A DNA stretch of 64,000 nt from Odoribacter sp. OttesenSCG-928-L07 (GTDB lineage Bacteria; Bacteroidota; Bacteroidia; Bacteroidales; BM520), in assembly GCA_030265965.1 (NCBI GenBank), contig JAJDHA010000002.1:25580-89579 (forward strand), written 5' to 3'. Below the pieces are notes generated by a model that was given only the letters and a program-made list of their open reading frames with translations, was not told the DNA's origin and did no database searches. This document shows positions 4,873-61,278 of the stretch, piece after piece. The first letter of the stretch is position 1; the number at the start of each line of letters is the position of its first letter. The position numbers and the translations under genes are program-made.

Positions 4873-5407
4873 GCATCATAAATTAGCTGAAGAAGAAGAG
4901 CTATTGCTCAGACAAACTTTACGTACGCTTCATTTTCCTAAAGGAAGTGTTGTTATTGAAGAAGGAAAAATAGATGATTCAATTTATTTTATTAGACAAG
5001 GCGTTTGGCGAGCACATATCGAACGTGAAGGGGAAGATTGTACGTTATGGTTTGCGGTTCAAGGTGAAACTGTTTTTTCTTCGTGGGGACATATTCGGAA
5101 TTTACCTTCGCGAATGACAATATCTTCGTCAAGTAATAGCGTGGTTATTGAAATGAAAAAAAGTACTGTGCAAAAATTATCCGAAATGTCGCCATCATTC
5201 AATAGTTGGCTTCATCTGCTTTACGTTGATATGATACTTAATAGCGACAATCAACTTGTTGATATATCTTATCCTAAAGCAGAAAAACGATATTTAGCTT
5301 TTATGAAGAAAATGCCGGAAATCTTTCAACATGTTCCACTCAAAGAAGTTGCAGGTTTTATTGGCGTTACTCCTCAATCATTAAGCCGTATTCGAGCAAA
5401 AATATGA
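4844..5407 (+). CDS. Crp/Fnr family transcriptional regulator
   Basis: cNMP-binding-like beta-roll region (VVIEEGKIDDSIYFIRQGVWRA) and C-terminal HTH (LKEVAGFIGVTPQSLSRIR). The ATG at 4844 (METLISII) is preferred to the TTG at 4829. Confidence 0.75.
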   Translation: METLISIINEHHKLAEEEELLLRQTLRTLHFPKGSVVIEEGKIDDSIYFIRQGVWRAHIEREGEDCTLWFAVQGETVFSSWGHIRNLPSRMTISSSSNSVVIEMKKSTVQKLSEMSPSFNSWLHLLYVDMILNSDNQLVDISYPKAEKRYLAFMKKMPEIFQHVPLKEVAGFIGVTPQSLSRIRAKI

Positions 5408-5422
5408 GCTTAAATTATCTCG

Positions 5423-6181
5423 TTATTTATCAAAAATTCCGTAAACAGCCGAGCCACTGCCGCTCATAGCTGCGTAAACTGCACCATTGGCATACATTTC
5501 ATCTTTTATCTTTTTAATTTCAGGATGAATTGGAAAAATCGATTCTTCAAAATCATTTTTAATATTATCCTTCCAAGTAGAAATATCGGAGTATATCATT
5601 TCCTTCAAATTTCTAACATTAGAATTTGGCTTTACTAAAGAATAAGCCTCTTTTGTTGAAATATGAATATTCGGCACTTTAACTTCAATTTTATTGTTTA
5701 AATTGAAATCTACTTCCTCCAAAATTTCGCCGCGAGAACTTGCAAAAGCCGGTTTGTTATCAATGAAAAAAGCGCAATCGCTTCCTAATTTTCCTGCGAA
5801 AACTTTTAGCTCATCATTTGAAATACCTAATTCAAACATTCTGTTTAATAGAATCAAAGTGGCAGCTGCATTTGATGAACCACCTCCCAAACCGGCACCA
5901 ACAGGAATCTTTTTATGTAAATAAATATCCACGGGGGGAAGATCATATATTTCTGAAAGTAAATTATATGTTTTAATACAAAGGTTGTCATCCTTTACTC
6001 CATCAATAATATTACCCGAAAAATGAATGTTTGTTTCTTTATTATTGGATTTCACTATTTCCAAAATGTCTTTCAATTCGTTAAAAGGATATAAAAAAGT
6101 ATAAATATTGTGAAATCCGTCATCTCTTTTTGACAATATTTGCAAACCTATGTTTATCTTTGCACTTGGGAAAATGATCAT
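5423..6181 (-). CDS. ispE: 4-diphosphocytidyl-2-C-methyl-D-erythritol kinase
   Basis: GHMP kinase motif PVGAGLGGGSSNAAA and the N-terminal AKINIGLQI pattern typical of IspE. Confidence 0.9.
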   Translation of the reverse strand: MIIFPSAKINIGLQILSKRDDGFHNIYTFLYPFNELKDILEIVKSNNKETNIHFSGNIIDGVKDDNLCIKTYNLLSEIYDLPPVDIYLHKKIPVGAGLGGGSSNAAATLILLNRMFELGISNDELKVFAGKLGSDCAFFIDNKPAFASSRGEILEEVDFNLNNKIEVKVPNIHISTKEAYSLVKPNSNVRNLKEMIYSDISTWKDNIKNDFEESIFPIHPEIKKIKDEMYANGAVYAAMSGSGSAVYGIFDK

Positions 6182-6197
6182 AATTTGAAATTTTGTC

Positions 6198-6205
6198 CAA
6201 AAGTA
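6198..6205 (-). promoter_or_regulatory. -7 promoter box (TACTTTTG on the minus strand) for ispE
   Basis: The reverse complement of caaaagta matches TAnnTTTG, 17 nt upstream of the ispE ATG. Confidence 0.35.
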
Positions 6206-6232
6206 TTAAAAAAAATCCTATAACCAAAAAAT

Positions 6233-7750
6233 ATGTCCTCAATCACTCAAACTTTATCGTCAATTGTTTTCAGAAAACATTTGCAGAAAATAAAGCGATT
6301 CAAATCTGAGCCGATTGAAGTACAAAATGCAATATTTAAAGATCTTATTAATAGAGGAGCTGATACGGTTTGGGGGCAAAAACACAATTATTCGTCTTTT
6401 TCTACAGTTAACGATTTTAGGGAAAGTGTACCTTTAAATACTTACGAAGATCTTGAACCTTATTTTCAGGAAATAATGAGCGGCAAACAAAATTTGCTGT
6501 GGCCCGAAACTATTCAATGGTTTTCAAAATCTTCCGGAACAACAACAGGTAAAAGTAAATTTATTCCTGTAAGTAAAGAAACTCTTTTTGGTTGTCATTA
6601 TGATGCCGGTAGGGCAATGGTTGCTAATTATATCGAAAATAGAAGCAATACAAAATTGCTTACTGGAAAAAATATCTCGGTATCAGGAAGTTATTTACAA
6701 GAAGTAAATGATAGTAATCAATATCTTGTCGGTGATATCTCCGCTATTCTTATGCAAAATCTACCTAAATGGGCAGAATATATTAAGATTCCATCAAAGA
6801 AATTAACTTTGATAAGCGATTGGGAAGAGAAAATCAATATGATTGCCGAAGCTGTGGTTAATAGAAATGTTGTCAGTTTTCTTGGAGTTCCTTCGTGGAT
6901 GCTTGTTATTCTAAGAAAAATTGAAGAAGTTTCAGGTAAATCGATTGATGAAACGTGGCCTAATCTTGAAGTCTTTTTTCACGGAGGAGTTGATTTCGGT
7001 CCTTATAAAGATAGATATAATAAATTGATTAAGAATCCTAATATGAGATACTTGGGAGTGTATAATGCTTCGGAAGGTTATTTTGCTTTTCAAGATGATT
7101 TGGATTCTGAGGATTTGCTTCTGCTTCTCGATTATGGTATTTATTATGAGTTTGTTCCTTTGGATATGCTTAGCGAAGGTTCACATTATGCTATTGGATT
7201 GGAGGATGTTAAATTAGGAGAGAATTACGCAATGGTAATTTCTACTAATAGCGGTTTGTGGCGGTATGTTATAGGTGATACGGTGAAATTCACATCGTTA
7301 AATCCTTTCAAAATAAAAATAACCGGTCGAACAAAAGCTTTTATTAATATTGTTGGAGAAGAACTAATTCTCAATAATGCTAACAAAGCTATTGGTGTTG
7401 CATGTAAAAAAACGGATGCGGTTTTGTCGGATTATACTGTTGCTCCAAAATTTTATAAAGAAGGAAATACCGCGCATGAATGGCTCATTGAGTTTGAGAA
7501 AGAACCGGATAATATGGAACTTTTCGAAAAATATCTTGATGAAGCCTTGATGGATGAAAATTCTGATTATAAAGCAAAACGTTTTCATGATATGGTGCTT
7601 CGAGCGCCAGTAATAGATGTTGTGCCTCAAGGTACTTTCTATAAATGGTTTAAAAGTAAAAATAAATTAGGCGGACAAAATAAATTGCGTCGATTGTCTA
7701 ATAACAGAAATATTGTTGATGAAGTTCTTTTAATGTTACAAAATTCATAA
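6233..7750 (+). CDS. GH3 auxin-responsive-promoter family protein (acyl-adenylate-forming fold)
   Basis: 505 aa with FSKSSGTTTGKSKFIPVS and the overall pattern familiar from the bacterial GH3 family common in Bacteroidota. Confidence 0.8.
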   Translation: MSSITQTLSSIVFRKHLQKIKRFKSEPIEVQNAIFKDLINRGADTVWGQKHNYSSFSTVNDFRESVPLNTYEDLEPYFQEIMSGKQNLLWPETIQWFSKSSGTTTGKSKFIPVSKETLFGCHYDAGRAMVANYIENRSNTKLLTGKNISVSGSYLQEVNDSNQYLVGDISAILMQNLPKWAEYIKIPSKKLTLISDWEEKINMIAEAVVNRNVVSFLGVPSWMLVILRKIEEVSGKSIDETWPNLEVFFHGGVDFGPYKDRYNKLIKNPNMRYLGVYNASEGYFAFQDDLDSEDLLLLLDYGIYYEFVPLDMLSEGSHYAIGLEDVKLGENYAMVISTNSGLWRYVIGDTVKFTSLNPFKIKITGRTKAFINIVGEELILNNANKAIGVACKKTDAVLSDYTVAPKFYKEGNTAHEWLIEFEKEPDNMELFEKYLDEALMDENSDYKAKRFHDMVLRAPVIDVVPQGTFYKWFKSKNKLGGQNKLRRLSNNRNIVDEVLLMLQNS

Positions 7751-8368: not shown

Positions 8369-9101
8369 AATAAATGCTGTTGGAATAATTCCGGCTCGAT
8401 ATAACTCGTCTAGATTTCCGGGAAAACCACTCGTTGACATTGACGGCAAAAGCATGATTCATAGAGTTTACGATCAAGCAATGAAATCGAAACTCCTTTC
8501 GAAAGTTTATATTGCTACAGACGATAAAAGAATTTTCGAACATGTAAAGAACTTTACTGACAATGTTTTAATGACTTCCGAAAATCATACAAACGGAACT
8601 GAAAGAGTTGCTGAAGCAATAGAAATACTCGAAGAAAGAAATCTTTTCTTTGACATTGTTGCAAATATTCAAGGCGACGAGCCATACATCTTCCCACAAC
8701 AAATTGATGAAGCATTATCTGTTCTTATTAATAATGAAAATGCGGAAATTGCCACTTTAATTAAAGAAATCAACTTCGAAGATGCAACAGACCCTAACAG
8801 GGTCAAAGTTGTTATTAGTAAGAATAATAAAGCATTATATTTCAGCCGACAAATTATCCCATTTTATAAAGTTGAACCTGAAAAACAAACTTATTACAAG
8901 CATATCGGTTTATATGTTTTCAGAACAATTATTCTTAAAGAAATTGTTAAACTCGATTTTTCGGTTTTAGAACGCGCTGAAAGCTTAGAACAATTAAGAT
9001 GGCTTGATAATGATTATAAAATTTTTGTTGAGTATTCGAATTATGAAACTATAAGTATTGATACTCCGGAAGATTTGAATGTCTTTGTTGGTGACGAGTG
9101 A
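8355..9101 (+). CDS. kdsB: 3-deoxy-manno-octulosonate cytidylyltransferase (CMP-KDO synthetase)
   Basis: IIPARYNSSRFPGKPL, NIQGDEP and an IDTPEDL-like C-terminus. The last codons and the TGA stop (9099-9101) lie inside the GTGACGA array. Confidence 0.9.
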   Translation: MAYSEINAVGIIPARYNSSRFPGKPLVDIDGKSMIHRVYDQAMKSKLLSKVYIATDDKRIFEHVKNFTDNVLMTSENHTNGTERVAEAIEILEERNLFFDIVANIQGDEPYIFPQQIDEALSVLINNENAEIATLIKEINFEDATDPNRVKVVISKNNKALYFSRQIIPFYKVEPEKQTYYKHIGLYVFRTIILKEIVKLDFSVLERAESLEQLRWLDNDYKIFVEYSNYETISIDTPEDLNVFVGDE

Positions 9102-9144
9102 CGAGTGACGAGTGACAAGTGACGAGTGACGAGTGACAAGTGAC
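9091..9144 (+). repeat. GTGACRA heptamer tandem array (about 7.7 units)
   Basis: gtgacga x3, gtgacaa, gtgacga x2, gtgacaa, gtgac. It fills the whole spacer between the convergent kdsB and the 170-aa OMP gene. Confidence 0.95.
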
Positions 9145-9656
9145 TATTTCATGGGAAAGTACACTCCAATTGCAAATGTAAACATCAATGGCATGTCGTC
9201 ATTAAGATTAGTTTTATAGAATGCACGACCTTTCATGACCCTAAACCCAAATCCAACTGAAGCTGTGAATACCTTTTTTGCTCTAAAAACAAACATTGGA
9301 GTTATTAATGCTTGTGTAGTTGAGTTGCCTAATCCCTGATGCCAAAATTGTAGAGACATAAATGAGCTTCTGATATCATTTTCTTTTAAGTGTATATTAA
9401 TGCCTAAGCCGAGACCTAAATATCCAAACCCTACTTGAATTCCAAAAATTTTTGTTGGAAGAACTTCAAAATCAAGGCCTACTAAACTACCTCCACCATG
9501 TAAAAATCCGAATGAGAGTGCAGTCTTTGAATGATCCTGAGAAATAGTATTCTCACTATTCTTATCAATTGTTTGATAGGCTAAAGTATTTTCTTGCGAA
9601 AATCCCACAAAAACAGTTGTCATTAAAAAAAATAATAGTAAAATTCTTTTTTTCAT
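9144..9656 (-). CDS. Small outer-membrane beta-barrel protein (hypothetical)
   Basis: Signal peptide (MKKRILLLFFLMTTVFVGFSQ), alternating Gly/aromatic beta-strand pattern and a C-terminal aromatic-rich strand. No specific family recognised. Confidence 0.5.
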   Translation of the reverse strand: MKKRILLLFFLMTTVFVGFSQENTLAYQTIDKNSENTISQDHSKTALSFGFLHGGGSLVGLDFEVLPTKIFGIQVGFGYLGLGLGINIHLKENDIRSSFMSLQFWHQGLGNSTTQALITPMFVFRAKKVFTASVGFGFRVMKGRAFYKTNLNDDMPLMFTFAIGVYFPMK

Positions 9657-9687
9657 AATTAATTATTATTTAAATTTTCCATTAACC

Positions 9688-9756
9688 CGTCACCCGTCAC
9701 ACGTCACCCGTCACACGTCACACGTCACTCGTCACTCGTCACTCGTCACTCGTCAC
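9688..9756 (-). repeat. GTGACNN heptamer tandem array (about 10 units, read on the minus strand)
   Basis: Plus strand reads cgtcacc cgtcaca cgtcacc cgtcaca cgtcaca cgtcact x4 cgtcac. It lies directly downstream of the 238-aa porin gene stop. Confidence 0.95.
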
Positions 9757-11035: not shown

Positions 11036-11133
11036 GTGACGTGTGACGTGTGACGTGTGACGGGTGACGAGTGACGCGTGACATGTGACATGTGACGAGT
11101 GACGAGTGACGGGTGACATGTGACGAGTGACAA
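11036..11133 (+). repeat. GTGACNN heptamer tandem array, largest copy (14 units)
   Basis: gtgacgt x3, gtgacgg, gtgacga, gtgacgc, gtgacat x2, gtgacga x2, gtgacgg, gtgacat, gtgacga, gtgacaa. It sits in the purE/GH2 divergent intergenic region. Confidence 0.95.
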
Positions 11134-11136
11134 CAC

Positions 11137-11227
11137 ATCCCCGTCAGGGGATTCCGAACGGTAGCCGAAAATGTTTCAATCCCGAAACCATCCCAATCCC
11201 GTCAGGGGATTCCGAACGGTGGCAGCC
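11137..11227 (+). repeat. Two direct copies of a hairpin-containing element (cccgtcaggggattccgaacggt)
   Basis: The 23-nt core occurs at about 11140-11162 and 11198-11220. Each contains the small hairpin (a)tccc(c)-gtca-ggggat. Confidence 0.8.
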
Positions 11228-16825: not shown

Positions 16826-16909
16826 ACCACCCGTCACCCGTCACCCGTCACCCGTCACCCGTCACATGTCACACGTCACACGTCACATGTCACACGTCAC
16901 TCATCACCC
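16826..16909 (-). repeat. GTGACNN heptamer tandem array (about 11 units, read on the minus strand)
   Basis: Plus strand reads gtcaccc x4, gtcacat, gtcacac x2, gtcacat, gtcacac, gtcactc, atcaccc. It fills the spacer between the convergent birA and the radical SAM gene. Confidence 0.95.
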
Positions 16910-21997: not shown

Positions 21998-23035
21998 ATG
22001 ATTTGCCTTATGAACAAACAAGTTATCAATAAGTTTTCCACACAGCTAATATTCCTTTTTACTTTTATTGTCATTTTTAGTTTTACTTCTTGTTCAAACT
22101 CATCTAAAGAATCTGCAAATTCCTCATCTGAAGAAATTGTTGTAGGTACAACAAATGATATTGGAAATGAGAATTTCGATGAAATTGATGAAGAGCAAAC
22201 GAATTCACAAGAAGATGAGCAATATATTGCAAAATCAAAAGAAAGCAGACCCTCGCATAAAATAGGAGGGGCTGGAACTACAGCAAATCCTGTCCAAACT
22301 GGTGCAGCGCCGAGTGAAACTGATATAGATGAATATGAGATTTCAATTACAATGGAAAAGAAAGTTTATATGAACCAAACATCGAATCTATCAGTACTTA
22401 TTGGTGCTAAAGGGAAATATGACCTTAAGCAAGAAAAAAAATCTGAGATTAGAGATAAAACAGATGTAATGGGCGACATAGATATTGGAGGAATGTATGC
22501 AAAGGTTGTACTTAACGCAAATGATTTTGAAATAATATCTTCGGATGATGAGTATAAATGCCTTAAAGTGTATCCGTATGGAACACCTTTTGGCTTTGTT
22601 TTGAAACCGAAAAAAGAAGGGACATTCGAAATTAAAGCAAATGTTTACTTTTATAAAGATTGTAATTGTGTTGAAAGAGCTGAACGAGGAAAGATTTCCT
22701 CAAACACTCTTAAAATAAAAGTTGTTGTTGATGAAATGACCGGCGTGAGGGGTACTATAATGAATCACGTAGCGGAGTTTATTACAGCATTGGTTGTTTT
22801 AATTTTAGGAGCTATTTTATTTGTTGTTCGGAAATTTATTAAAAATAAAACCGGATTTGAAGTGCCACAAGTTGACGCAACAGTTGATAAAATAAAAACA
22901 ATAATTTCAAAAGATAAAACTGTTAATACCGATGAAGCAGTTAAAACAGTTAAAGCTCCGAAAGTAGTTGAAATTGACGAAGAAGTTGAAGTTGATGAAA
23001 TAGTTGAATCGGACGAAAATAATGATGAGAAGTAG
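21998..23035 (+). CDS. Hypothetical membrane-anchored protein with acidic low-complexity regions
   Basis: N-terminal hydrophobic segment with a Cys (lipobox-like FTSC), a second TM near residue 260, and an acidic EIDEEVEVDE tail. No family recognised. Confidence 0.5.
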   Translation: MICLMNKQVINKFSTQLIFLFTFIVIFSFTSCSNSSKESANSSSEEIVVGTTNDIGNENFDEIDEEQTNSQEDEQYIAKSKESRPSHKIGGAGTTANPVQTGAAPSETDIDEYEISITMEKKVYMNQTSNLSVLIGAKGKYDLKQEKKSEIRDKTDVMGDIDIGGMYAKVVLNANDFEIISSDDEYKCLKVYPYGTPFGFVLKPKKEGTFEIKANVYFYKDCNCVERAERGKISSNTLKIKVVVDEMTGVRGTIMNHVAEFITALVVLILGAILFVVRKFIKNKTGFEVPQVDATVDKIKTIISKDKTVNTDEAVKTVKAPKVVEIDEEVEVDEIVESDENNDEK

Positions 23036-24207: not shown

Positions 24208-24251
24208 GATTTGAAGATTTGAAAATTTGAAGATTTGAAAATTTGAAGATT
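24208..24251 (+). repeat. Tandem 8-mer array TTTGAARA (about 5 units)
   Basis: ga tttgaaga tttgaaaa tttgaaga tttgaaaa tttgaaga tt. It fills the whole ogt/DUF1697 spacer. Confidence 0.9.
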
Positions 24252-25008: not shown

Positions 25009-25016
25009 TATCTTTG
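25009..25016 (+). promoter_or_regulatory. -7 promoter box TATCTTTG upstream of the EamA transporter gene
   Basis: TAnnTTTG match. It overlaps the track's TTG start (25014), which argues for the downstream ATG at 25053. Confidence 0.5.
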
Positions 25017-25052
25017 CAGCCAATTTTGATTGTCAAAAATAATTCTATTCCA

Positions 25053-25970
25053 ATGAAAAATAAAGCCAGATTTAAAGGCATTTTATTCGGCATAATTGCT
25101 GCTGTCGCTTACGGAACAAATCCGCTTTTTTCTTTGCCGCTTTATGCTGAAGGATTGTCTCCCGACTCGGTACTGTTTTATCGATATGGAATAGGTGTTA
25201 TTCTTCTCGGTATAATACTCCTTATCAAAGGAGAATCTTTGAAAATCCAGAAAAAGGAAATTTTGCCTTTACTTATTTTCGGGATAATTTTTGCCTGCTC
25301 ATCACTATTTCTATACCAAAGTTTTCTATATATGGATGCTGGAATAGCCTGCACAATACTATTTATTTATCCGGTATTAGTTGCAGTGATTATGGCTGTG
25401 TTTTTCAAAGAAAAAGCATCGTGGCTAACATATTCTTGTATTATCTTGGCAATGATAGGAATTGCTTTGTTATACAGAGGTAACGGAGATACAACATTAA
25501 GTACAACCGGATTAATATTGGTCGCGCTGTCATCTCTTTGTTATGCCATTTATATTGTTGCTGTTGATCATTCAAGAATACGAACAATGTCATCAACAAA
25601 GATGACCTTCTGGATATTAGTTTTCGGCAGCATTGTTTTTATAGTTCGTACCAGATTTTTATCAGAATTGCAATTGGTTCCGCCAACGTTTTACAGCTGG
25701 GTTAATGCGATAGGAATTGCGCTGTTCCCAACAATTATTTCATTGCTTTTTATAAATATTTCCATAAAAAACATAGGTCCGACTTTCGCAGCAATTTTTG
25801 GCGCTCTCGAACCGGTAACCGCTCTAATAATAGGCGTATTTGTGTTTCACGAAGCTATAACAGTACGAATAGTTATTGGTGCACTTTTAATTCTAATTGC
25901 TGTTACGCTTGTTGTTTCAGGAAATAATATTCTTGCTTTTTTTGGAAAAAAATCTATAAAGGAAAATTAA
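25053..25970 (+). CDS. EamA/DMT family transporter
   Basis: Ten hydrophobic segments and two EamA-like halves. The start is moved to MKNKARFKG. Confidence 0.8.
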   Translation: MKNKARFKGILFGIIAAVAYGTNPLFSLPLYAEGLSPDSVLFYRYGIGVILLGIILLIKGESLKIQKKEILPLLIFGIIFACSSLFLYQSFLYMDAGIACTILFIYPVLVAVIMAVFFKEKASWLTYSCIILAMIGIALLYRGNGDTTLSTTGLILVALSSLCYAIYIVAVDHSRIRTMSSTKMTFWILVFGSIVFIVRTRFLSELQLVPPTFYSWVNAIGIALFPTIISLLFINISIKNIGPTFAAIFGALEPVTALIIGVFVFHEAITVRIVIGALLILIAVTLVVSGNNILAFFGKKSIKEN

Positions 25971-28428
25971 AGTTGTTATTGTTTTTGAATTGTTTGACCA
26001 TTTTTCTATATTTAAAATAGCCCCAAAGTGGCAACACAACAAATACCGCTAATACCAAAGTTATTATCAAGTAAACATTCATCCCAATATTTCCACCATA
26101 ACTGTGCATTCCGCCTAAGATGTAATTTACACCGAAGTAGGTCATTAGCACAACTAACATTGCCATTAAACTATAAAAATGGAAGAAAAACGGACGTTTA
26201 AACAGCGAAAGACTTTTTTCGTGAAGCGGCAATGCGTAAACTATCATCGTGATTAACGCCCAGGTTTCTTTTGGATCCCACGACCAGTATGTTCCCCAGC
26301 TGACTTCAGCCCAGATTGCCCCGACAAATATTCCTGCTGTTAATAAGAAAAGTGCAGGATAAAGTAAAATCTTGCTAAAGACTGATAATTGCAGCATTCT
26401 GTTATTTACGAGTTCTATGTTTTTTTGTTTTGAGATGATGATTGAAATGAACGCGGCAATTGCAATAAAGGCGACAAACGCAAAGAGTGTGTACGATATC
26501 ATGATGAGTGAAACGTGGATACTCAAAAGTGGTGAAATTAATACCGGCTGCAACTGTGTAATTTGCGGATTTGCTGAACCCATCATCGATACAAGCATTA
26601 CTAATGACGAGAAAATAAATCCAAATGGTATTGAAAGAAACATTCTTTTTCTGAATATAAGTGCGAGAACAATAATACAAAGAGCTAAAAACTGTAAAGT
26701 CTCAAAGCCGTTGCCAAGAGGAATTCTTCCACTGATATATCCACGCAAACTAATCATTATCAGAATTAACAATCCGCTTATTATTAATACAAGATTTAAT
26801 ATTGCTGGAATTATTTTGTTTTGAGACGTGGCACGCCACGTCTCTACTTTATCAATGATACCAGTTTTATCCACTTTATCGATTTTATCCACTTTATCGG
26901 CTTTATCCACCTTTCCTCTCCCGTTCTCTCTTCTAAAAAAATATACCAAAGCAAAAATTCCAATCAACAAATGCGAAAACGCAATGGGTTTCACAATATT
27001 AAAGGAATTAAATATTTTTTCTGCAATAATCTTTTGTGGCGACAATAATAATTCTCCTGCCGACTTTCTTTGAAAAACTGATAATTTATCTAATGTGTAA
27101 CTAAAATCCTGCCAATGCTTTTGTTGCGCATATTCTCTTAAAAGTGAAAGACTTCCCTTAATGACTAATCGTTCATTTTCGGAAATGTTTTTTGGAAGTT
27201 CATCAGAGGGAGAATACCATATTAATTCTTTTTCTGAAACATATTGCGGAAAAACTTTCAGTAGGGTTTTCGATTGAATCATAAAAATCAGTTGAATTTT
27301 TTCATCGGCAGCGATTATATCTTTTGCGCCTTCAACCGTTTCACCCATGCGAATTTTTTGTAATGGCGCCGCAAGCTTGTAATTTTTTCCATCAATAAAA
27401 AAATCGGAGAAAGATGCATATTTACTTTCTAAGTCCAAAAGTTGTTGAACCGTTTTACCCTTTACTTTAATCACCGGTTCATCCTTCCATTCATCAAAGA
27501 AAAAAAGCCAACCAGCCAAAACTTGCTCCGAAGACATGGAATTGTAAGAAGTTTTTCCGTAAAGTTTTTGTGTGAAATCTTTGGAGAATGTTTGCATCGG
27601 GCAAATTCTGTCTTTGTATAAAATCTGCAATTGACCGAATTGTTTAGCGCTTTCTTCCGGAATTGATTTTGGATTGGCAATACCAATATTAATTGCACCA
27701 AAAAATATCAATATTACTATTGCACTTTGTTTCAAAGCAGGATGATTCAACAACTTTCTGAAGGATGTATTTGGAATGCAGAAATATCCTATCATCGAAA
27801 TAAACAGTAGAAAATATCCGGCATAAGTTACAGGAAGTCCATATCTGTCGGATTTAACAAGCAGTGTTGTTCCCTTTAAATCTTTATCGTAAGACATTTG
27901 ATAGAAACGGTATCCTTTGTCGGAAAAAACTTTATTCATGGAAACCTTTCCGTTGATTTCGATACCGTTTCTAATTATTTTGATATTGCTGATGTAATCG
28001 TAAGGAGCTTGTGTGCCGGGATAATATTCGATTTCAAAACTCGAAAGAAGAACATCAAAATGAAGTCTTTGTCGAGAATTGTTTTTTTCGTTTACCAAAG
28101 TATTTTCCGGTTTACCCTTTCGCAGATGAATTTTCCCTTCCGAAGAAGTTGTGAAAGTAAGGAATGCTCCTGTTAAAATCACAATAAACGATATATGCAG
28201 CAAAAAAGTTATCGGCTTTTTGTACATTTTGCATTTGATGATGTGCAAAAATCCACAAAACGCAATGACTATCCAAATACCTATAAACCACCACGATCCA
28301 TAAATGTTTTCAGCAACAAAAGGAGTTCCTTTTGCTTTTTCCACAAAAGTCGCCAACGCCAAAATCATCAGCATGATAATTAGGAAACCGAAGGAGAATA
28401 TTTTGGATATTTTTGCTTTGATGGACAT
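25954..28428 (-). CDS. ccsBA: Fused cytochrome c biogenesis protein CcsBA (ResB-like N-terminal part plus CcsA haem-handling C-terminal part)
   Basis: 824 aa. The C-terminal W-rich haem-binding motif WGTYWSWDPKETWAL marks CcsA. The N-terminal half has TM helices and a large soluble domain as in ResB/CcsB. Confidence 0.85.
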   Translation of the reverse strand: MSIKAKISKIFSFGFLIIMLMILALATFVEKAKGTPFVAENIYGSWWFIGIWIVIAFCGFLHIIKCKMYKKPITFLLHISFIVILTGAFLTFTTSSEGKIHLRKGKPENTLVNEKNNSRQRLHFDVLLSSFEIEYYPGTQAPYDYISNIKIIRNGIEINGKVSMNKVFSDKGYRFYQMSYDKDLKGTTLLVKSDRYGLPVTYAGYFLLFISMIGYFCIPNTSFRKLLNHPALKQSAIVILIFFGAINIGIANPKSIPEESAKQFGQLQILYKDRICPMQTFSKDFTQKLYGKTSYNSMSSEQVLAGWLFFFDEWKDEPVIKVKGKTVQQLLDLESKYASFSDFFIDGKNYKLAAPLQKIRMGETVEGAKDIIAADEKIQLIFMIQSKTLLKVFPQYVSEKELIWYSPSDELPKNISENERLVIKGSLSLLREYAQQKHWQDFSYTLDKLSVFQRKSAGELLLSPQKIIAEKIFNSFNIVKPIAFSHLLIGIFALVYFFRRENGRGKVDKADKVDKIDKVDKTGIIDKVETWRATSQNKIIPAILNLVLIISGLLILIMISLRGYISGRIPLGNGFETLQFLALCIIVLALIFRKRMFLSIPFGFIFSSLVMLVSMMGSANPQITQLQPVLISPLLSIHVSLIMISYTLFAFVAFIAIAAFISIIISKQKNIELVNNRMLQLSVFSKILLYPALFLLTAGIFVGAIWAEVSWGTYWSWDPKETWALITMIVYALPLHEKSLSLFKRPFFFHFYSLMAMLVVLMTYFGVNYILGGMHSYGGNIGMNVYLIITLVLAVFVVLPLWGYFKYRKMVKQFKNNNNFNFPL
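26823..26912 (-). repeat. In-frame repeat module inside ccsBA: 22-bp palindrome plus a 9-mer tandem array
   Basis: gagacgtggc-ac-gccacgtctc (26823-26844) is followed by ctttatcNN 9-mers (26847-26909). On the coding strand this encodes GKVDKADKVDKIDKVDKTGIIDKVETWRATS. Confidence 0.85.
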
Positions 28429-30039: not shown

Positions 30040-30063
30040 ACGCGCACGTCAGTGCGTCTCTAC
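30040..30063 (-). repeat. Degenerate copy of the GTAGAGACG...CGTCTC palindrome
   Basis: Plus strand gacgcgcacgtcagtgcgtctctac. The right arm is identical to the 40408-40441 palindrome and the left arm is decayed. Confidence 0.6.
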
Positions 30064-30127
30064 GCGTCACACGTAACTTCACAATCCGTCACACGTCACT
30101 CGTCACCCGTCACACGTCACTTGTCAC
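30064..30127 (-). repeat. GTGACNN heptamer tandem array (about 9 units, some degenerate)
   Basis: Plus strand gcgtcac acgtaac ttcacaa tccgtcac acgtcac tcgtcac ccgtcac acgtcac ttgtcac. The imelysin TGA stop (30124-30126) lies in the first unit. Confidence 0.9.
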
Positions 30128-31245
30128 TCCACAACCTCATCAATCAAAGAAAGTTGATCCAGCAAGTTATTACAAGCATCCATCGCCGCCTCAATCATTG
30201 GTGCACTTGCCGGATTATCAAGTTGGTTTCTGAAAGGAGAAGGAATATCTTTTATAGCGTTAATTGCAGTTTCAATTGCCTCCAAGATATCTTTATCCAA
30301 TTGCTCGTTTTTACTATTAACATAATCGCTCAAAGATTTTCCGGTTCTATAACCTTCCATTCCTCCCAAATAAGAGTTTTCGATGCTGATAATATTATTA
30401 GTGAAATCATCTAAAGAGTTCCAACTATACCAAGACTCAACACGAAGAACATTTTTTGTTTCGTATGGATCGGCAATTTTCTCGTTTCCAACTTCGTCTG
30501 CAATAGTCTCACATCCGCCAATGATTTCACGAACAGCTTGTTGCGGAGTTTTGAAACGACTACCTGCAGAACCCGCATTTAGCATTTCATAACCGAAATT
30601 AGAAGATATTTCAAGTTCAGCTTCTTCTAATATCCTTTTTTTAGTCGAACTAATATCATCAGTCCAAGATGCTTCCAAGAGAACACAATCTTCCATCAGA
30701 ACACCTGCAACAGCAACAAGATAAATCAATTCATTAGTTGTAATTTTAGAAACATCTTTTGCTTGTCCATTTTCAAAAAGGACGTATTCGATTGCATGAA
30801 AACCGATGAGATTTACACCATAATAAACGCGGGCATGTGGTGCGTCAACTCCGGTCATGTCTTTAGCAAGCTCTTGATCCAGAGTGTTTTTGTCGAGGGG
30901 CCATGAGTCAATACGAGGATCCAATGAGTTGTATTCTGCCGGTCCATAAAGGAAAGCCTCACTCAATTCCCAGTATTTGCGAGCTTCTTTCCATTTGTTC
31001 GCAGCTGCCAATACATTTGCATCTGTTGGTGATTCTTGAAGATTTTCACATAACTCAAACAAATCTATTGCATTGTTTGCCAATAAATTATAAGTTTTAA
31101 TTACAGTGTTGTTGGTATATACATCTAAGATTTCCAACATTTCTTTGTCGTCTTCTTCAATCGTGCCACCTCCACACGAACTTAAATTAAACACAAGAAT
31201 TAATGCCATTGAGGCAAATAAAAAATTTTTCAAATTGTTTTTCAT
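30124..31245 (-). CDS. Imelysin family lipoprotein (peptidase M75 / EfeO/IrpA-like)
   Basis: Lipobox (LSSC) and the conserved GFHAIEYVLF (HxxE) motif, with imelysin-like length. Confidence 0.85.
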   Translation of the reverse strand: MKNNLKNFLFASMALILVFNLSSCGGGTIEEDDKEMLEILDVYTNNTVIKTYNLLANNAIDLFELCENLQESPTDANVLAAANKWKEARKYWELSEAFLYGPAEYNSLDPRIDSWPLDKNTLDQELAKDMTGVDAPHARVYYGVNLIGFHAIEYVLFENGQAKDVSKITTNELIYLVAVAGVLMEDCVLLEASWTDDISSTKKRILEEAELEISSNFGYEMLNAGSAGSRFKTPQQAVREIIGGCETIADEVGNEKIADPYETKNVLRVESWYSWNSLDDFTNNIISIENSYLGGMEGYRTGKSLSDYVNSKNEQLDKDILEAIETAINAIKDIPSPFRNQLDNPASAPMIEAAMDACNNLLDQLSLIDEVVE

Positions 31246-31354: not shown

Positions 31355-31375
31355 GATCCCCTACGGGGATTTTTC
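31355..31375. terminator. Hairpin ATCCCC-TAC-GGGGAT with a T5 run on the plus strand, downstream of the porin-like gene
   Basis: Inverted repeat read directly. It is followed (plus strand) by ctttatcca ttttatcgg ttttac, a short copy of the 9-mer repeat family. Confidence 0.4.
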
Positions 31376-31401
31376 TTTATCCATTTTATCGGTTTTACAA
31401 A

Positions 31402-35337: not shown

Positions 35338-35347
35338 GGCTTATTTA

Positions 35348-35378
35348 GTTGAAAGTTGAAAGTTGAAAAGTGAAAATT
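35348..35378 (+). repeat. Tandem heptamer array GTTGAAA x3 plus AGTGAAA
   Basis: gttgaaa gttgaaa gttgaaa agtgaaa read directly. Confidence 0.9.
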
Positions 35379-40407: not shown

Positions 40408-40441
40408 GAAGTAGAGACGCACGGCCGTGCGTCTCTACTTC
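40408..40441. repeat. Perfect 34-bp palindrome GAAGTAGAGACGCACGG|CCGTGCGTCTCTACTTC (possible bidirectional terminator)
   Basis: The two 17-nt arms are exact reverse complements. It lies 3 nt after the folC stop and is followed by a heptamer array. Confidence 0.85.
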
Positions 40442-40505
40442 TAGTCACACGTCACTTGTTACTTGTCACACGTCACTTGTCACACGTCACACGTCACACA
40501 TCAGT
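40441..40505 (-). repeat. GTGACNN heptamer tandem array (about 9 units)
   Basis: Plus strand tagtcac acgtcac ttgttac ttgtcac acgtcac ttgtcac acgtcac acgtcac acatcag tcac. The TGA stop of the small Arc-like ORF lies at its edge. Confidence 0.9.
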
Positions 40506-55800: not shown

Positions 55801-56008
55801 CAGTACCACCGCTCCATCCGCCTAATTCTGCCGGCGAAGCAGGTAAATAACCTAATCCATTAACACCAAAATAATTAACTACAAGAGATGTGTTTTGAGC
55901 TGTTGACCATATTGATCCCGGATTACCATCATAAATAGCATTGATTCGAACCGGGTTTTTACCTTCTCCTCTCAAGTAACCGCCAACAACTTTTGCAACA
56001 ATGTACAA
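52814..56008 (-). CDS. Gingipain-like (clan CD, C25-type) cysteine peptidase with adhesin/FN3-like repeats and a T9SS C-terminal domain; 5'-truncated and probably non-functional
   Basis: His-Gly ... Cys dyad with 33-residue spacing (QHRDHG at residues 85-90, SINCLTG with Cys122) as in gingipains. There are four tandem about 90-aa repeats (..YRNDxxIA...Y.D.....G.Y.Y.V.A.Y) and a T9SS tail (KIYPNPAQNILNIEA...LNSGIYVLDI). It has no signal peptide or prodomain, the frame opens only at TTG 56008, and an in-frame stop lies about 15 nt upstream. Confidence 0.7.
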   Translation of the reverse strand: MYIVAKVVGGYLRGEGKNPVRINAIYDGNPGSIWSTAQNTSLVVNYFGVNGLGYLPASPAELGGWSGGTAQDVINAVNSGAYILQHRDHGYEPGWGEPDFTTANIPSLNNVGKMTYVFSINCLTGKFNHSSKCFQEVFHLHQWQGQNAGAVGVLCPTSTSFSFVNDTYIWGVYDLFDPDFMPDYGPYADNSGNWLPAFGNVAGKYFLAQSSWPYNVNNKQITYQMFTAHSDAFLRLYTEVPQTLTVTHEEVSLAGNTNFNITATEGAMIALTLDGEILAVADATGVQQTIIIPATLIPTNEINVVCTKQNYLRYESVVTVVPADGPYVIGNNWVVNDDNHDEILQYGESATIDMTAKNVGIETASNVSMTISSESEHVTIIQNTANFGNIAADATATVNDAFEVLISEDVPNNTTILFDISSTDGNDVWASAMTIKVYRPILAYDDFSWQGSFEAGETLSFAIAFENKGGAPVNDVVGVLSSANQYVTIDVAEQAYGNILPNETGIAIFNVTLSDETPQSGLIEFNISVSGDEGMITADGSFGIENKCTIYFDMWDSSGDGWDSNGRISIRQNNIEIASVKLQSGSFGQTELSLPTGELDFVWIYGNNYDYENSFKIYNHDHELIYQTSGTPTAGSFLVYDNSCGQSGIICESPINLLAENEENIVTLSWESDGVNFIVKRDGVQIGSTTETQFIDNAAPFGLLEYSVTAICISGAVSDESKVNVEIAALYPPVKELHAEITDNNVYISWIEPTTKDFEISSFKIYRNDVEIANVFDAYYSDNNLLNGNYIYCVEVIYDDGETSDKICLDEIIIDICEIPANLNVNINVNNASLMWSETINPSQSYNVYRNNEIISNTTDTHFYDNDLNNGEYEYCIEAIYSNCTSERICFDLINIAVCHQPINLTHIAENNSVVLEWEKSPFVSSANYSVYRNDELLAENISETNYTDVNPVKGNSVYGVQANYNLECETSDPATLQVNYVGINNYDSNVKIYPNPAQNILNIEAKDMSKITIYNNSGQIVLKLDVNGDKTNVDVSKLNSGIYVLDIVDTNNSSIKTKVVITK

Positions 56009-56273
56009 ACTACCAATTGGAGGCTATATTATTGATACTCCCGGAATAAAAGAATTCGGACTTGCTGATATGGAGAAAACGGAAGTAGCTGAAAGATTTC
56101 CTGAAATGCGCAAATTTCAACACAATTGCAAGTTTAATAATTGCACTCATACTAACGAACCCGGATGTGCAATAAAAAAAGCCGTTGAAGAAGGATTGAT
56201 TCCTGAAGAGAGATATAATAATTATTTGAGTATCATATCCGATGAATATTTTTATGATAGTAATTACGATTAG
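56001..56273 (+). pseudogene. rsgA: 3' fragment of the ribosome small-subunit GTPase gene rsgA (C-terminal about 90 of about 300 codons)
   Basis: GGYIIDTPGIKEF (G3 DTPG motif) and the C-terminal zinc knuckle CKFNNCTHTNEPGCAI are present. The OB fold and the G4/G1 motifs are absent. Confidence 0.8.
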
Positions 56274-56276
56274 AAA

Positions 56277-56729
56277 ATGAAGGTAGTAATTCAAAGAGTT
56301 AGTCAGGCAAGTGTAACTATTAACGGAAATGTTAATAGCGAAATCAAAAACGGAATATTAATATTAGCCGGATTTGAAAATGCCGATAACGACGAAGACT
56401 TAGAATGGATTGCCGGGAAAATTGTTCGACTGAGAATTTTTCCCGATAATAATGAAGTGATGCATTTATCTATACAAGATGTTGACGGCGATATTTTATT
56501 GGTTAGTCAATTTACTCTTCACGCATCTACCAAGAAAGGAAATCGACCATCTTATATTTATGCTGCAACTCCTGATATTGCAATTCCATTGTACGAAAAG
56601 TTTATCAAAATTCTCGAAAATCAACTTGGAAAGTCGATTCAAACCGGAATCTTCGGCGCAGATATGAAAGTCGCTCTCATTAACGATGGACCTGTAACTA
56701 TTATTATTGATTCGAAAAACAGAGTTTGA
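56277..56729 (+). CDS. dtd: D-aminoacyl-tRNA deacylase
   Basis: MKVVIQRV..A.V, SQFTL and a 150-aa length. Confidence 0.93.
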   Translation: MKVVIQRVSQASVTINGNVNSEIKNGILILAGFENADNDEDLEWIAGKIVRLRIFPDNNEVMHLSIQDVDGDILLVSQFTLHASTKKGNRPSYIYAATPDIAIPLYEKFIKILENQLGKSIQTGIFGADMKVALINDGPVTIIIDSKNRV

Positions 56730-56730
56730 T

Positions 56731-56759
56731 TTTGCCCCTAAATCCCCTAAAGGGGACTT
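56731..56759 (-). repeat. Inverted copy of the AAGTCCCCTTTAGGGGATTTAGGGGCAAA hairpin element, directly after the dtd stop
   Basis: Plus strand tttgcccctaaatcccctaaaggggactt, which is the reverse complement of 42519-42548 apart from one G in a G-run. Confidence 0.75.
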
Positions 56760-56937
56760 GGAAAGCAAATTAGATAGTATTAGCATTATGACAAAATTGC
56801 AGAATTACAAAATAAACATATCTTTAATAAAGCCATATCAAATTTAAAACAATCAAATATGTAAATTATGTAATTTTGTAATTCTGTCAATGGGAATATC
56901 ATAATTAAAGAATAAAATTACTTGGTGTCGAAGTTAT

Positions 56938-58625: not shown

Positions 58626-58928
58626 AAAACGTTATAATTGCTGAATTAACATAAAAGATTTTTTGTTATAATAGTTAATTTTGTATTTTTCATAGATAGC
58701 CACGTCGCTACGCTCCTCGCAATGACGCTAAAATGTGACTTTATCTACTTTATCGGCTTCTTCTACACGTTACAACTTCACGGTTGGCAAAGATACAACA
58801 AAGAATTTAGTTGTAAAAAGGTGATTGGATTTTTTGGAATTTATGGAATAAAAATTTTCATTATTACATTTGGATTAACAAAATTTTTGTTATACATTTG
58901 CAGGTAATTATTTTTTAATTAAATACTT
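58626..58928 (+). repeat. Conserved about 300-bp non-coding block, copy A
   Basis: Aligns by eye at roughly 90 percent identity with 60965-61278. It contains a REP-like element (gccacgtcgctacgctcctcgcaatgacgcta, 58695-58730), ctttatcNN repeats, a minus-strand TAnnTTTG box (58788-58795) and a plus-strand box TACATTTG (58893-58900). Confidence 0.85.
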
Positions 58929-60964: not shown

Positions 60965-61278
60965 TAAACGTTATAATTGCTGAATTAACATAAAAGATTT
61001 TTTGTTATAATATGTTAATTTTGTATTTTCATAGATTGCCACGTCGCTACGCTCCTCGCAATGACGCTAAACCGTGGCTTAATCCACTTTATCGGCTTTA
61101 TCGGCTTCTTCTACACGTTACAACCTCACGGTTGGCAAAAATACAACAAAGAATTTAGTTGTAAAAAGGTGATCGGATTTTTTGGAAAATTTATGGAATG
61201 AAAATTTTTATCAAAACATTTGGAATAATAAAATTTTTCTTATACATTTGCAGGTAATTATTTTAAAATTAAAAATTT
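60965..61278 (+). repeat. Conserved about 300-bp non-coding block, copy B
   Basis: Counterpart of 58626-58928: REP-like element at 61034-61078, a minus-strand TAnnTTTG box at 61136-61143 and a plus-strand TACATTTG box at 61243-61250. Confidence 0.85.

Follow-up and report, generated by a model that had tools for sequence, protein, structure and literature searches.

A GTAG-footed REP hairpin and a 9-nt tandem array in frame in a cytoplasmic loop of ccsBA in a gut Bacteroidales bacterium

The ccsBA gene of Odoribacter sp. OttesenSCG-928-L07, a gut Bacteroidales bacterium, carries a short palindrome and a run of 9-nt units in frame. The palindrome is a GTAG-footed REP hairpin of the type tied to RayT transposases, and the segment as a whole is probably passenger (selfish) repeat DNA, tolerated because the loop it occupies is permissive, in a gene that is normal in other respects. 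An earlier note on this DNA had seen an intergenic-type repeat module here, an identification that was partial where the palindrome is concerned. The insert adds one more case to a known phenomenon and is not a new system; in-frame intragenic REPs have already been documented (Di Nocera et al. 2013, PMC3733652). All positions given here refer to the 64-kb stretch of DNA that was analysed, termed the window.

ccsBA lies at 25954..28428 on the minus strand, where an intact open reading frame encodes a fused ResB-like/CcsA-like cytochrome c synthetase of 824 aa. The product is 100% identical to the NCBI entry 'cytochrome c biogenesis protein CcsA [Odoribacter sp. OttesenSCG-928-L07]', and it keeps every column that is invariant in 24 homologues. 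Pfam places ResB at residues 75-183 and Cytochrom_C_asm at residues 573-775, with the insert between these two halves, as had been proposed. When 120 CcsBA homologues were compared, the insert was absent from every other protein, and the loop that holds it was the longest (42 aa, where 13 aa is the commonest length). At the DNA level, the orthologous loci L001-L004 align to positions 26300-26817 and 26924-27492, but not to 26818-26923. An insertion unique to one lineage is thus supported, and its limits can be refined to 26818..26923 (minus strand), a segment which, from these alignments, that with L002 and the loop length, comprises diverged native loop and inserted repeat DNA, the latter amounting to ~81 nt (27 codons). 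The 8-kb locus of the closest relative has no such arrays.

The insert is on the cytoplasmic side, in the loop that joins the last transmembrane helix of the ResB-like half to the first of the CcsA-like half, and so at a distance from the residues that handle haem in the periplasm; six hydrophobic segments lie upstream of this loop, and its flanks are positively charged. In the AlphaFold model, pLDDT is 48-59 at residues 501-540 as against 77-86 in the flanking helices, and the insert is predicted to form a charged, DK-rich, low-confidence extension of both of these helices. A homologue in the PDB (25vk) has 19 residues at the position where CcsBA has 48. The idea that a flexible linker could accommodate the segment is therefore well founded, the site being a permissive cytoplasmic loop of low pLDDT, and the ResB-CcsA loop offers a natural permissive site for protein engineering.

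The hairpin occupies 26823..26847 (minus strand). On the coding strand it reads GTAG-AGACGTGGC-GT-GCCACGTCT-C, a 5' GTAG foot (GTAG-AGACG...) followed by a 10-bp stem, as is typical of GTAG-tagged REPs, which are short palindromes of 20-40 bp with a GT[AG]G foot, and it encodes VETWRATS. The palindrome described earlier, GAGACGTGGC-AC-GCCACGTCTC, is exact at 26823-26844, a perfect 10+10 in frame where shuffled sequences lead one to expect 0, and the coding-strand peptide given for the segment, GKVDKADKVDKIDKVDKTGIIDKVETWRATS, is present in the 824-aa reading frame. Folding of the mRNA around it gives a divided answer: the hairpin itself is stable (-16.1 kcal/mol, z -5.8), but the 151-nt context beyond it is not unusually structured (z -1.7). 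The pattern GAGACG..CGTCTC occurs twice in the 64 kb (at 26823 and 40414), with 0.03 occurrences expected, and a census found these to be the only perfect GC-rich hairpins in the window and likewise the only GTAG-footed ones. Rfam returned no gathering-score match anywhere in the window, and in the literature the hairpin string matched primers alone, by coincidence.

Outside this genome the hairpin is widespread. The exact 22-mer is found in >120 metagenome contigs, whose GC content ranges from 32 to 68%; most copies have GTA...TAC as their flanks, and the upper stems of the metagenome hairpins vary with compensatory pairs, the second variant of the window among them. Often the 22-mer is in frame within unrelated conserved genes, as VETW[HR]ATSL or RRDVA[CR]HVST; its hosts include GltB, a TolC-like protein, T9SS proteins, a BamB-like protein, HsdR, HsdM, a GT2 glycosyltransferase and another ResB-CcsA fusion. 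When such proteins are aligned to solved structures, the hairpin stands out as an insertion, for example as a 9-aa gap in GT2. The palindrome family is accordingly not private to this genome: the same element recurs, repeatedly in frame, across very different metagenomes. The finding is of modest practical value: VETW[HR]ATSL and RRDVA[CR]HVST are signatures of REP insertion that could be flagged automatically, and the odd DK-rich/VETWRATS stretch of an essential-type membrane enzyme is explained as repeat DNA, not as a new domain.

The link to transposases comes from the metagenome contig L029, where a RayT-like gene has the hairpin both within it and immediately 5' of it (NCBIfam REP_Tyr_transpos, E 1e-16, with a score of 61 bits that is under the cut-off of 80). 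The motifs of this protein, NHLH, SWQ and YIENNV, agree with those of subclass 2.4 (NH[IFV]H, WQ, YIxNNP, in-frame REPs). A search for RayT homologues found 1,530, and many among the matches listed carry, in the loop that follows the HUH motif, one to three hairpin-encoded peptides in two frames, such as VETWRAASL, CRDVACNVS..GDVARYVST and similar. The hairpin type is GTAGAGACG-(variable upper stem)-CGTCTC(TAC), a companion of subclass 2.4 RayT/TnpA_REP transposases. Separately, GTAGAGACGTGGCATGCCACGTCTCTAC is the sequence of a candidate single-stranded substrate for a subclass 2.4 RayT.

Subclass 2.4 TnpA_REP/RAYT (Bertels group 4) is known for 'double foot' REPs and for REPs in frame within tnpA_REP (Quentin et al. 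2018, PMC6006769). The present family resembles the GTAG REPs (PMC6006769, PMC3733652) in being a GC-rich hairpin of 22-28 nt with a 5' GT[AG]G foot, many copies also having a 3' CTAC, in its upper stem varying with compensatory changes, and in its presence in Bacteroidetes and scattered phyla. Like them, it is mostly intergenic and near gene 3' ends, as is the copy at 40408, with occasional in-frame copies in unrelated genes and also in tnpA_REP between the HUH and Tyr motifs; of 88 metagenome copies, 54 lie outside long open frames. The ccsBA copy differs from double-foot REPs in having one foot, and from GTAG REPs in general in having a companion tandem 9-mer array, a feature not described in PMC6006769 or PMC3733652. 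A further difference is that no RayT gene was found by tblastn with the L029 RayT, either in the window or in ~12 kb of additional flanking sequence of this genome. For Bacteroidetes, the listing of 2013 contains CGTC-type REPs only, not GTAG-type (Di Nocera et al. 2013, PMC3733652); the ccsBA case extends the GTAG type to a Bacteroidales genome.

The array at 26866..26910 (minus strand) consists of five 9-nt units, TTTATC followed in turn by CAC, GAT, CAC, GGC and CAC, and encodes VDKADKVDKIDKVDK. The tandem 9-mers reported earlier are indeed present and in frame (Tandem Repeats Finder: 26866-26910, period 9, 5 copies, score 62; period 18, score 78), and the array can be read openly in five of the six frames. 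Between hairpin and array is an 18-nt spacer at 26848..26865 (minus strand), TTTATCAAT GATACCAGT, which reads ACTGGTATCATTGATAAA on the coding strand (TGIIDK) and aligns loosely to AACAATATCAATCGAAAAGATAAA of L002. Its first half, TTTATCAAT at 26848-26856, resembles a degenerate 9-mer unit; the spacer may be either what is left of the native loop or such a unit together with filler.

Both repeat types have intergenic counterparts in the window, so that the insert is, as had been claimed, made of families otherwise found between genes. The palindrome family does include copies at 40408-40441 and 30040-30063. The first, at 40408..40441, is a double-foot REP (GAAGTAGAGACGCACGG|CCGTGCGTCTCTACTTC) located 4 nt past a Mur-ligase stop codon between convergent genes; it is a perfect 17+17 palindrome with a strong hairpin (-27.5 kcal/mol, z -7.5), its upper stem CACGGCCGTG recurs in a metagenome locus, and it is adjoined by a 7-mer array, GTCACAC/GTCACTT, at 40444..40503 (plus strand). 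The second is degenerate: at 30040..30129 (plus strand), GACGCGCAC-GTCA-GTGCGTC and TCTAC form a weak hairpin (-11.6 kcal/mol, z -1.6) that has GTGCGTCTCTAC in common with the family and is followed by CGTCACN 7-mers at 30086-30129. Intergenic 9-mers were confirmed at three places on the plus strand. At 31376-31400 the units TTTATCCAT TTTATCGGT follow a different hairpin, GATCCCC-TAC-GGGGATT, in a module spanning 31355..31400; at 58740..58760 the units TTTATCTAC TTTATCGGC are part of a 417-nt duplicated intergenic segment; and at 61076..61107, previously noted as 61083-61105, are TTAATCCAC TTTATCGGC TTTATCGGC. This last array and that of ccsBA have 21 identical bases in common, ATCCACTTTATCGGCTTTATC.

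The window contains 19 arrays with units of 7-9 nt, of which 16 fall in the 14% of the DNA that is non-coding (P 1e-11), and that of ccsBA is the sole one deep inside a gene. These arrays behave as an STRR-like family, being tandem repeats of short units, enriched between genes and variable in unit number: the sister assemblies differ by two indels, of 56 nt (8 units) and 10 nt, and by base changes at the variable position of the unit. The number of units in the ccsBA array is equal in both assemblies, but this is uninformative, as the whole locus is identical between the two. The contrast of unit lengths drawn in the earlier note, 9 nt within the gene and 7 nt next to intergenic palindromes, is real, although intergenic 9-mers exist too. 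It is better read as a filter, such that within genes only stop-free lengths that are multiples of three survive.

A scan of species-representative genomes (the source genome not among them) for ATCCACTTTATCGNNTTTATC gave 16 matches. True arrays were found in two of these only, L012 and L016, both intergenic and from one Bacteroidales MAG; the other 14 are single and non-tandem, and appear from their flanks, with open reading frames unchecked, to be ...DKxDKVD... codons on the opposite strand. A peptide search with the 40-aa insert returned P0121 alone and missed the source protein itself, so it says little on other in-frame copies. P0121 was rejected as a relative of the insert, its DNA being a GATAAGGTA repeat on an unrelated contig.

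Taken together, the tolerated-passenger reading would involve two components. The first would be one REP hairpin that has its GTAG foot on the 5' side; published work on Y1 (HUH) transposases suggests that hairpins of this kind move by cut-and-paste, in single-stranded form, at the replication fork. The second would be a simple repeat with a unit of 9 nt, (TTTATCCAC/TTTATCGNN)n, in five to six copies, which appears to belong to the genome's intergenic 7-9-nt array family and to change, like it, through gain and loss of units. Hairpin and array together would supply the 27 added codons, and the insert survives because its length is a multiple of three, its frame has no stop codon and its site is a cytoplasmic loop. 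Some findings count against this reading. No RayT gene lies in the sequence searched, family hairpins number only two perfect and one degenerate in about 76 kb of the source genome, and the 18-nt spacer resembles native loop, which fits two separate events or growth of the array in situ.

Palindrome and 9-mers belong to two separate families and do not demonstrably form one mobile module. The inserted hairpin unit would be about 25-33 nt, and excision of 30 nt or of 33 nt each restores an orthologue-like loop. The composite has neither terminal inverted repeats nor a convincing target-site duplication, its junctions in the L002 alignment having AAA alone in common. In 120 metagenome loci the hairpin stands beside a tandem array in 9 of 137 cases as compared with 3.2% of random positions, an enrichment of about 2-fold, and this association is too weak for a universal hairpin-array composite element to be claimed.

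The chief alternative is that the REP alone was inserted and that the 9-mer array then grew beside the hairpin through replication slippage or template switching. The conserved KDKII motif, with its native Asp-Lys codons GAT AAA, would have served as the seed, and the array would resemble the intergenic ones through gene conversion or through a sequence-biased process common to both, instead of co-transposition. This course of events is possible, if distinctly less probable than the acquisition of ready-made repeat DNA. Orthologues read ...AAA GAT AAA ATA ATA... exactly at the hairpin site, GATAAA being the constant part of the 9-mer, and the loose alignment of the spacer to the native loop, the quick gain and loss of units in this genome's arrays and the weak REP-array association elsewhere all point the same way. 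Tandem copies of half a REP with its flank, seen at loci of other organisms and also within RayT loops, are a further point in favour. Against it, the 21-nt identity and the alternating CAC/GGC superunit are common to the 61083 array and to those of the other MAG, which makes an independent origin unlikely; moreover, intergenic hairpins and arrays abut within 2-5 nt and with the same polarity.

A bolder possibility, which must be regarded as speculative, is that REP hairpins of the ccsBA type nucleate polar tandem arrays, the 7-9-nt spacer arrays of this genome arising as side products of events that depend on the hairpin. On one side of the GTAG foot, RayT might cleave and rejoin the DNA, or a fork might stall and switch template, and the ccsBA insert would be an in-gene snapshot of a process whose 3n-unit, stop-free products alone survive in genes. 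Hints in this direction are the identical hairpin-to-array polarity of all seven hairpin-array modules in the window, the heptamer CACGTCA, one base from the REP arm CACGTCT, and the same tandem half-REP copies in other organisms and RayT loops. Whether the tight, polar pairing of REPs and arrays in this genome is mechanistic or coincidental is the question that this case raises.

The earlier note left the segment as either domesticated or tolerated, and toleration is the better reading: the insert is confined to one lineage among 120 homologues, with low model confidence along its length. No function is indicated, and we infer that it is neutral. Functional domestication is improbable, whether the insert is imagined as a flexible charged linker between the ResB and CcsA modules, as a hairpin in the mRNA setting the pace of translation or of membrane insertion, or as a terminator of antisense transcripts from the EamA gene. 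In its favour, ccsBA is intact and still in frame, the hairpin is stable, the EamA gene (25014-25970, plus strand) is convergent with ccsBA, and the plus-strand hairpin with its T-rich array scores as terminator-like. However, on the sense strand the hairpin is followed by A-rich, not U-rich, sequence, the surrounding mRNA is unremarkable in structure, and the occurrence of the same hairpin in frame across unrelated proteins argues against a protein-specific role.

It is very unlikely that the insert is an artefact of assembly or amplification in a draft, possibly single-cell, genome. The assemblies are drafts, and at 55986, within an rsgA gene, two others no longer agree with the window, so joins in the source deserve caution. 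Yet the ccsBA locus is 100% identical over 4,475 nt in GCA_030265935.1, although that assembly differs from the window elsewhere by an IS insertion, array indels and 0.5% SNPs (99.5% identity); the insert is in frame, with native sequence resuming on both sides, and the same hairpin is in frame in many independent metagenome assemblies. Least credible of all is a DnaA-box cluster, a datA/DARS-like titration site, hidden in ccsBA: the three same-strand TTATCCAC(T/C) words 18 bp apart that the earlier note remarked on do exist, but they are by-products of one repeated unit, the alternate units TTATCGGCT and TTATCGATT are poor boxes, 8-of-9 matches are at chance level (30 in the window, 21 ± 4.7 expected), TTATCCACA boxes do not rise above background, and a perfect box occurs nowhere in the 64 kb.

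Palindromic DNA in frame within genes has precedents beyond the REPs. The Rickettsia palindromic elements (RPEs) were reportedly described by Ogata et al. in 2000. RPEs and other intragenic MITEs are palindromic selfish DNA found in frame in functional genes (review PMC10969869). Like an RPE, the ccsBA insert adds a peptide segment in frame at a permissive site. RPEs are about 100-150 bp, specific to Rickettsia and have a conserved peptide per family, whereas ccsBA has a 25-nt palindrome and a simple-sequence array; membership was rejected on size, sequence and host, though the insert works like an RPE. Assignment to the MITEs (70-300 bp, with terminal inverted repeats and target-site duplication) was likewise rejected, the hairpin being of 22-28 nt and the composite having neither feature. 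Small dispersed repeats (SDR) of Nostoc are said, after Elhai et al. 2008, to be hairpins of 21-27 nt, proposed to be mobile and inserted in conserved genes; in these respects they would resemble the ccsBA hairpin.

For the array, the cyanobacterial short tandem repeats (STRR) that Mazel et al. reportedly described in 1990 are one point of reference. Others are the intergenic short tandem repeats TAACTGA (MacGregor 2015, PMC4679880) and GGGAATC/GGGGAYT (Rehm et al. 2015, PMC4692102). In common with such 6-9-nt repeats, the arrays of this genome have short units, are overwhelmingly intergenic, vary between close relatives and are missing where relatives have the orthologous spacer; when such repeats do occur within genes, which is rare, they are at protein edges or in a stop-free orientation. 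Unlike STRR, TAACTGA and GGGAATC, the units here are CGTCACN, TTTATCNNN and others, the arrays are frequently found directly beside hairpins, always in the same polarity, and one array is located midway in a conserved membrane protein. In relatives, other inserts are found in a second loop, which precedes the WWD helix.

The segment that interrupts ccsBA is selfish repeat DNA, inserted in frame into a permissive linker on the cytoplasmic side. ccsBA is a fused ResB-like/CcsA-like gene (25954-28428, minus strand), whose 824-residue product is 100% identical to the annotated CcsA/CcsBA of Odoribacter sp. OttesenSCG-928-L07, with Pfam matches to ResB at residues 75-183 and to Cytochrom_C_asm at residues 573-775. 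On the plus strand the insert begins with a perfect 10+10 palindrome at 26823-26844 (GAGACGTGGC-AC-GCCACGTCTC), of a kind expected zero times in shuffled sequence. This is followed by TAC, a degenerate unit with filler (TTTATCAAT GATACCAGT) and, directly after the filler, an array of five 9-nt units, TTTATC+NNN, at 26866-26910. Translated on the ccsBA coding strand, the region reads ...RRENGRGK VDKADKVDKIDKVDK TGIIDK VETWRATS QNKII.... The earlier note had described the palindrome and 9-mers correctly throughout, as well as the in-frame insertion itself, which is real, and its other sites at 40408, 30040, 31376, 58740 and 61083 are all confirmed in the window sequence. Its interpretation falls short over the REP nature of the palindrome. 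Judged by sequence, the insert is made up of a RayT-type GTAG REP palindrome and a simple-sequence 9-mer array. REPs inside genes and short tandem repeats between genes have both been documented already, so that the ccsBA case is an instance of a known phenomenon.

That the segment is an insertion unique to this lineage, as had been proposed, is borne out by its homologues. In an alignment of 24 CcsBA proteins, the Odoribacter sequence is the sole carrier of some 27 additional residues. Among the 120 homologues listed, the transmembrane helices on either side are joined by a loop of 5-32 residues (mode 13); in the Odoribacter protein this loop has 42, the longest of all. Against the DNA of the closest relative among the homologues listed (P0002, 75% identity) the window has 81 extra bases, and no arrays of this kind are present across the 8-kb locus of that relative. 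In BLAST searches of the collected loci, four orthologous loci match 26300-26817 and 26924-27492 with no alignment between; the unaligned stretch instead has matches of two unrelated kinds, to REP-bearing metagenome loci in its hairpin part and to intergenic arrays of another Bacteroidales MAG in its array part. An orthologue-like K-D-K-I-I loop results whether 30 nt or 33 nt are excised around the hairpin, and the 18 nt separating the hairpin from the 9-mer array may be native sequence. Two assemblies are identical over the whole 4.5 kb of the ccsBA locus, so that no 9-nt step differences could be seen; as these assemblies agree here yet differ elsewhere, the comparison argues against an assembler artefact.

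Two other assemblies of the organism (L024 at 4708, L025 at 2915) match window 55986-64000 perfectly and are unrelated upstream. The break lies inside rsgA, which is truncated in the window; the source of the window may have a contig join, a rearrangement or a chimera at this point. In GCA_030265935.1 (L026 11575-12887) an IS3-family insertion (rve + HTH_Tnp_1) splits a cNMP-binding gene, at about 5066 of the window; this gene is unbroken in the window and in GCA_030266045.1.

REPs fall into two superfamilies, GTAG-tagged and CGTC-tagged, and intragenic, protein-decorating REPs occur in several species (Di Nocera et al. 2013, PMC3733652). Those of TnpA_REP subclass 2.4, which corresponds to Bertels RAYT group 4, have a 'double foot', with GT[AG]G 5' and the complementary tetranucleotide 3', and may lie inside the tnpA_REP gene with the frame unbroken. 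The transposases have NH[IFV]H, WQ and YIxNNP motifs, and are plentiful in Cyanobacteria and Bacteroidetes and scattered otherwise (Quentin et al. 2018, PMC6006769). A link to such a transposase (RayT) is provided by a metagenome locus, L029, which has one hairpin inside a 180-residue gene and another immediately 5' of the same gene. This gene matches the NCBIfam 'REP-associated tyrosine transposase' model at E 1e-16, below the curated cut-off, and a database search with its product returned 1,530 homologues, of which some bear the name RayT or have PF01797. Peptides encoded by the hairpin, one to three per protein and in two different reading frames, occupy the loop that follows the HUH motif (PNHxHxIVVI) in at least 88 of the 120 members listed of the 1,530; among them are VETWRAASL, VETGRAPSL (twice), CRDVACNVS...GDVARYVST, CRDAARHVST and VETRRATSL. 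These homologues and their hairpins agree with the published description of subclass 2.4 (Quentin et al. 2018). Because the ccsBA palindrome reads GTAG-AGACG... on the coding strand, and given the RayT and REP comparison, its best classification is as a GTAG REP of the RayT-associated subclass 2.4 type. The second perfect copy (40408-40441), which begins 4 nt past a stop codon between convergent genes, has the make-up of a textbook double-foot REP. A search with the L029 protein found no RayT gene in the window or its flanks.

When public metagenome contigs were scanned for the exact 22-mer, leaving the two central bases free, it was found on at least 120 (L028-L147; GC 32-68%), which from their accession prefixes are probably of termite-gut, soil and rumen origin. 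In most of them GTA and TAC flank the 22-mer, giving GTAGAGACGTGGCNNGCCACGTCTCTAC. The 658 kb around these matches contain 22 more hairpins with a GAGACG/CGTCTC base and different self-complementary upper stems, one of which, CACGGCCGTG, is identical to the stem of the 40408 copy. Among the matches listed, 34 of the 88 copies with sufficient flank lie well within long open frames. The in-frame copies examined are in real conserved genes, where the hairpin reads VETW[HR]ATSL or RRDVA[CR]HVST; the hosts include the glutamate synthase large subunit (GltB), a TolC-like protein, two T9SS-secreted proteins, a BamB-like propeller, HsdR and HsdM of one type I restriction system, a GT2 glycosyltransferase and another, metagenomic, ResB-CcsA fusion. 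Relative to solved structures the peptide is an insertion, with a clean 9-residue gap in GT2 and a 5-residue gap within a variable loop in GltB. An identical 22-nt core across 32-68% GC would be unexpected if REPs co-evolve with lineage-specific RayTs, and suggests either that subclass 2.4 systems have spread horizontally or that the stem is strongly constrained. A second hairpin, GAGACGCGACAnTGTCGCGTCTC, often accompanies the REP in GC-rich contigs.

The suggestion that the ResB-CcsA linker is permissive is supported. The insert loop is preceded by six hydrophobic segments, and the short loops flanking these segments obey the positive-inside rule. In CcsBA the conserved histidine and WWD region are periplasmic; as an independent count back from this region places three helices before the loop is reached, the loop is predicted to be cytoplasmic. 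In an AlphaFold2 model built from the 24-sequence alignment, pLDDT is 48-59 at residues 501-540 and 77-86 in the neighbouring helices, the insert being drawn as extensions of both. The solved homologue 25vk has 19 residues opposite 48 in the Odoribacter protein, in which all columns invariant among the 24 homologues are intact. Residues 232-252 (about 27673-27735; SAIVILIFFGAINIGIANP) are transmembrane by hydropathy, while in the AlphaFold2 model their pLDDT is below 50 and they lack secondary structure. The topology of the ResB-like half is thus uncertain; the side of the insert loop is unaffected, since it was counted from the CcsA half.

A 102-nt in-frame insert (TPKFQPLNPLKGTSQIADNQYPPLGVGGDCPQFE), unlike that of Odoribacter, is present in CcsBA orthologues at 63% identity (L003 6909-7010, in gene 5001-7466, and L004; also proteins P0003 and P0006), in the loop immediately before the WWD-domain helix. 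It is strongly self-complementary, forming a long hairpin (-42 kcal/mol), and is a second, independent repeat-element insertion in the CcsBA gene family. The metagenomic ResB-CcsA fusion (L033 3981-4002, L129 2889-2910) has a 22-mer REP identical to that of the Odoribacter gene, read in frame as RRDVACHVST, in the pre-WWD-helix loop that also holds the P0003 insert. Together these two cases show that CcsBA loops accept such inserts repeatedly.

Functional readings of the insert are improbable. A terminator acting on the antisense strand has low probability; only that strand looks terminator-like, and a sense-strand terminator is rejected because the hairpin is followed by A-rich sequence. The DnaA-box cluster raised as a side point by the earlier note dissolves on counting, as its three TTATCCAC words stem from one repeated unit and 8-of-9 matches in the window are at background frequency (30, against 21 ± 4.7 expected). 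There is no Rfam match, and folding revealed no unusual mRNA structure around the insert besides the hairpin itself.

Tandem arrays with 7-, 8- or 9-nt units number 19 in the window, 16 of them in non-coding DNA, which makes up 14% of it (binomial P = 1e-11 for exclusion from genes). Two overlap a gene by its final 1-27 nt, and only that of ccsBA is deeply intragenic, 911 nt from the nearest gene end. Spacers are often wholly occupied by arrays (e.g. 24208-24251, 16828-16909). The corresponding region of GCA_030265935.1 is 99.5% identical overall, and nearly all differences fall in the heptamer arrays 9091-9144, 9688-9756 and 11036-11131: indels of 56 nt (eight units) at 11043-11098 and of 10 nt at 9140, plus nine substitutions in 9688-9756, all at the variable seventh position. 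As these indels and substitutions show, the arrays are unstable. They behave like the published intergenic heptamer repeats of Beggiatoaceae, Cyanobacteria, Bacteroidetes and Xanthomonas. The ccsBA array and the intergenic array at 61083 have 21 identical bases in common, and the other Bacteroidales MAG has TTTATCGGC TTTATCCAC TTTATCGGT arrays in two intergenic regions; the 9-mer family is evidently not confined to ccsBA. The contrast between 9-nt units in the gene and 7-nt units outside is sound, but does not amount to evidence for adaptation. Five of the six reading frames are open in the 9-mer array, whereas CGTCACN heptamers have TGA in all three frames of one orientation, and heptamer arrays preserve the frame only where their units number a multiple of three; the contrast is therefore the expected residue of selection against frameshifts and stop codons.

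Hairpins of the ccsBA REP family in this genome each adjoin an array, with the same polarity; hairpins in metagenome loci have an array within 40 nt only about twice as often as random positions do. We could not place a counterpart of this polar pairing in the literature examined. The commonest heptamer in register, CACGTCA (arrays 30086, 40444 and 9688), is one base off the REP arm CACGTCT (26835-26841). In other organisms, hairpins are followed by tandem copies of the REP 3' half and flank (L044, 18-mers; L072, 8-mers TCTCTACA; L124, L043, L133). A second hairpin family, ATCCCC-N3/4-GGGGAT, also adjoins arrays, two copies (11137-11152 and about 11198-11213) after the 11036 heptamers and one (31355-31372) before the 31376 9-mers.

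Several other repeats were observed. Heptamer arrays in inverted orientation (GTGACGA to the left, CGTCACN to the right; 9091-9756) flank a 170-residue gene, at 9144-9656 on the minus strand, that has no Pfam match. Two intergenic segments of about 415 nt (58605-59006 and 60944-61359), 89% identical and upstream of genes with no or weak Pfam matches, each contain CGTCGCTACGCTCCTCGCAATGACG, 9-mers and a Bacteroidetes -7-like motif, TATCTTTG, on the minus strand. The gene at 21998-23035 (plus strand) has an acidic C-terminal tail, KVVEIDEEVEVDEIVE, encoded by 9/18-nt GTTGAA-based repeats at 22960-23008; these resemble the AGTTGAA heptamers found between genes at 2295-2320 and 35347-35368, and may be a second array absorbed by a coding region. 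In the other Bacteroidales MAG, L012 7200-7479 comprises 6.7 copies of a 42-nt unit with its own hairpin (TTTCGGGTCTTCCCGAAA), followed by 19-mers, 9-mers and 14-mers, and shares a spacer with the 9-mers of that MAG.
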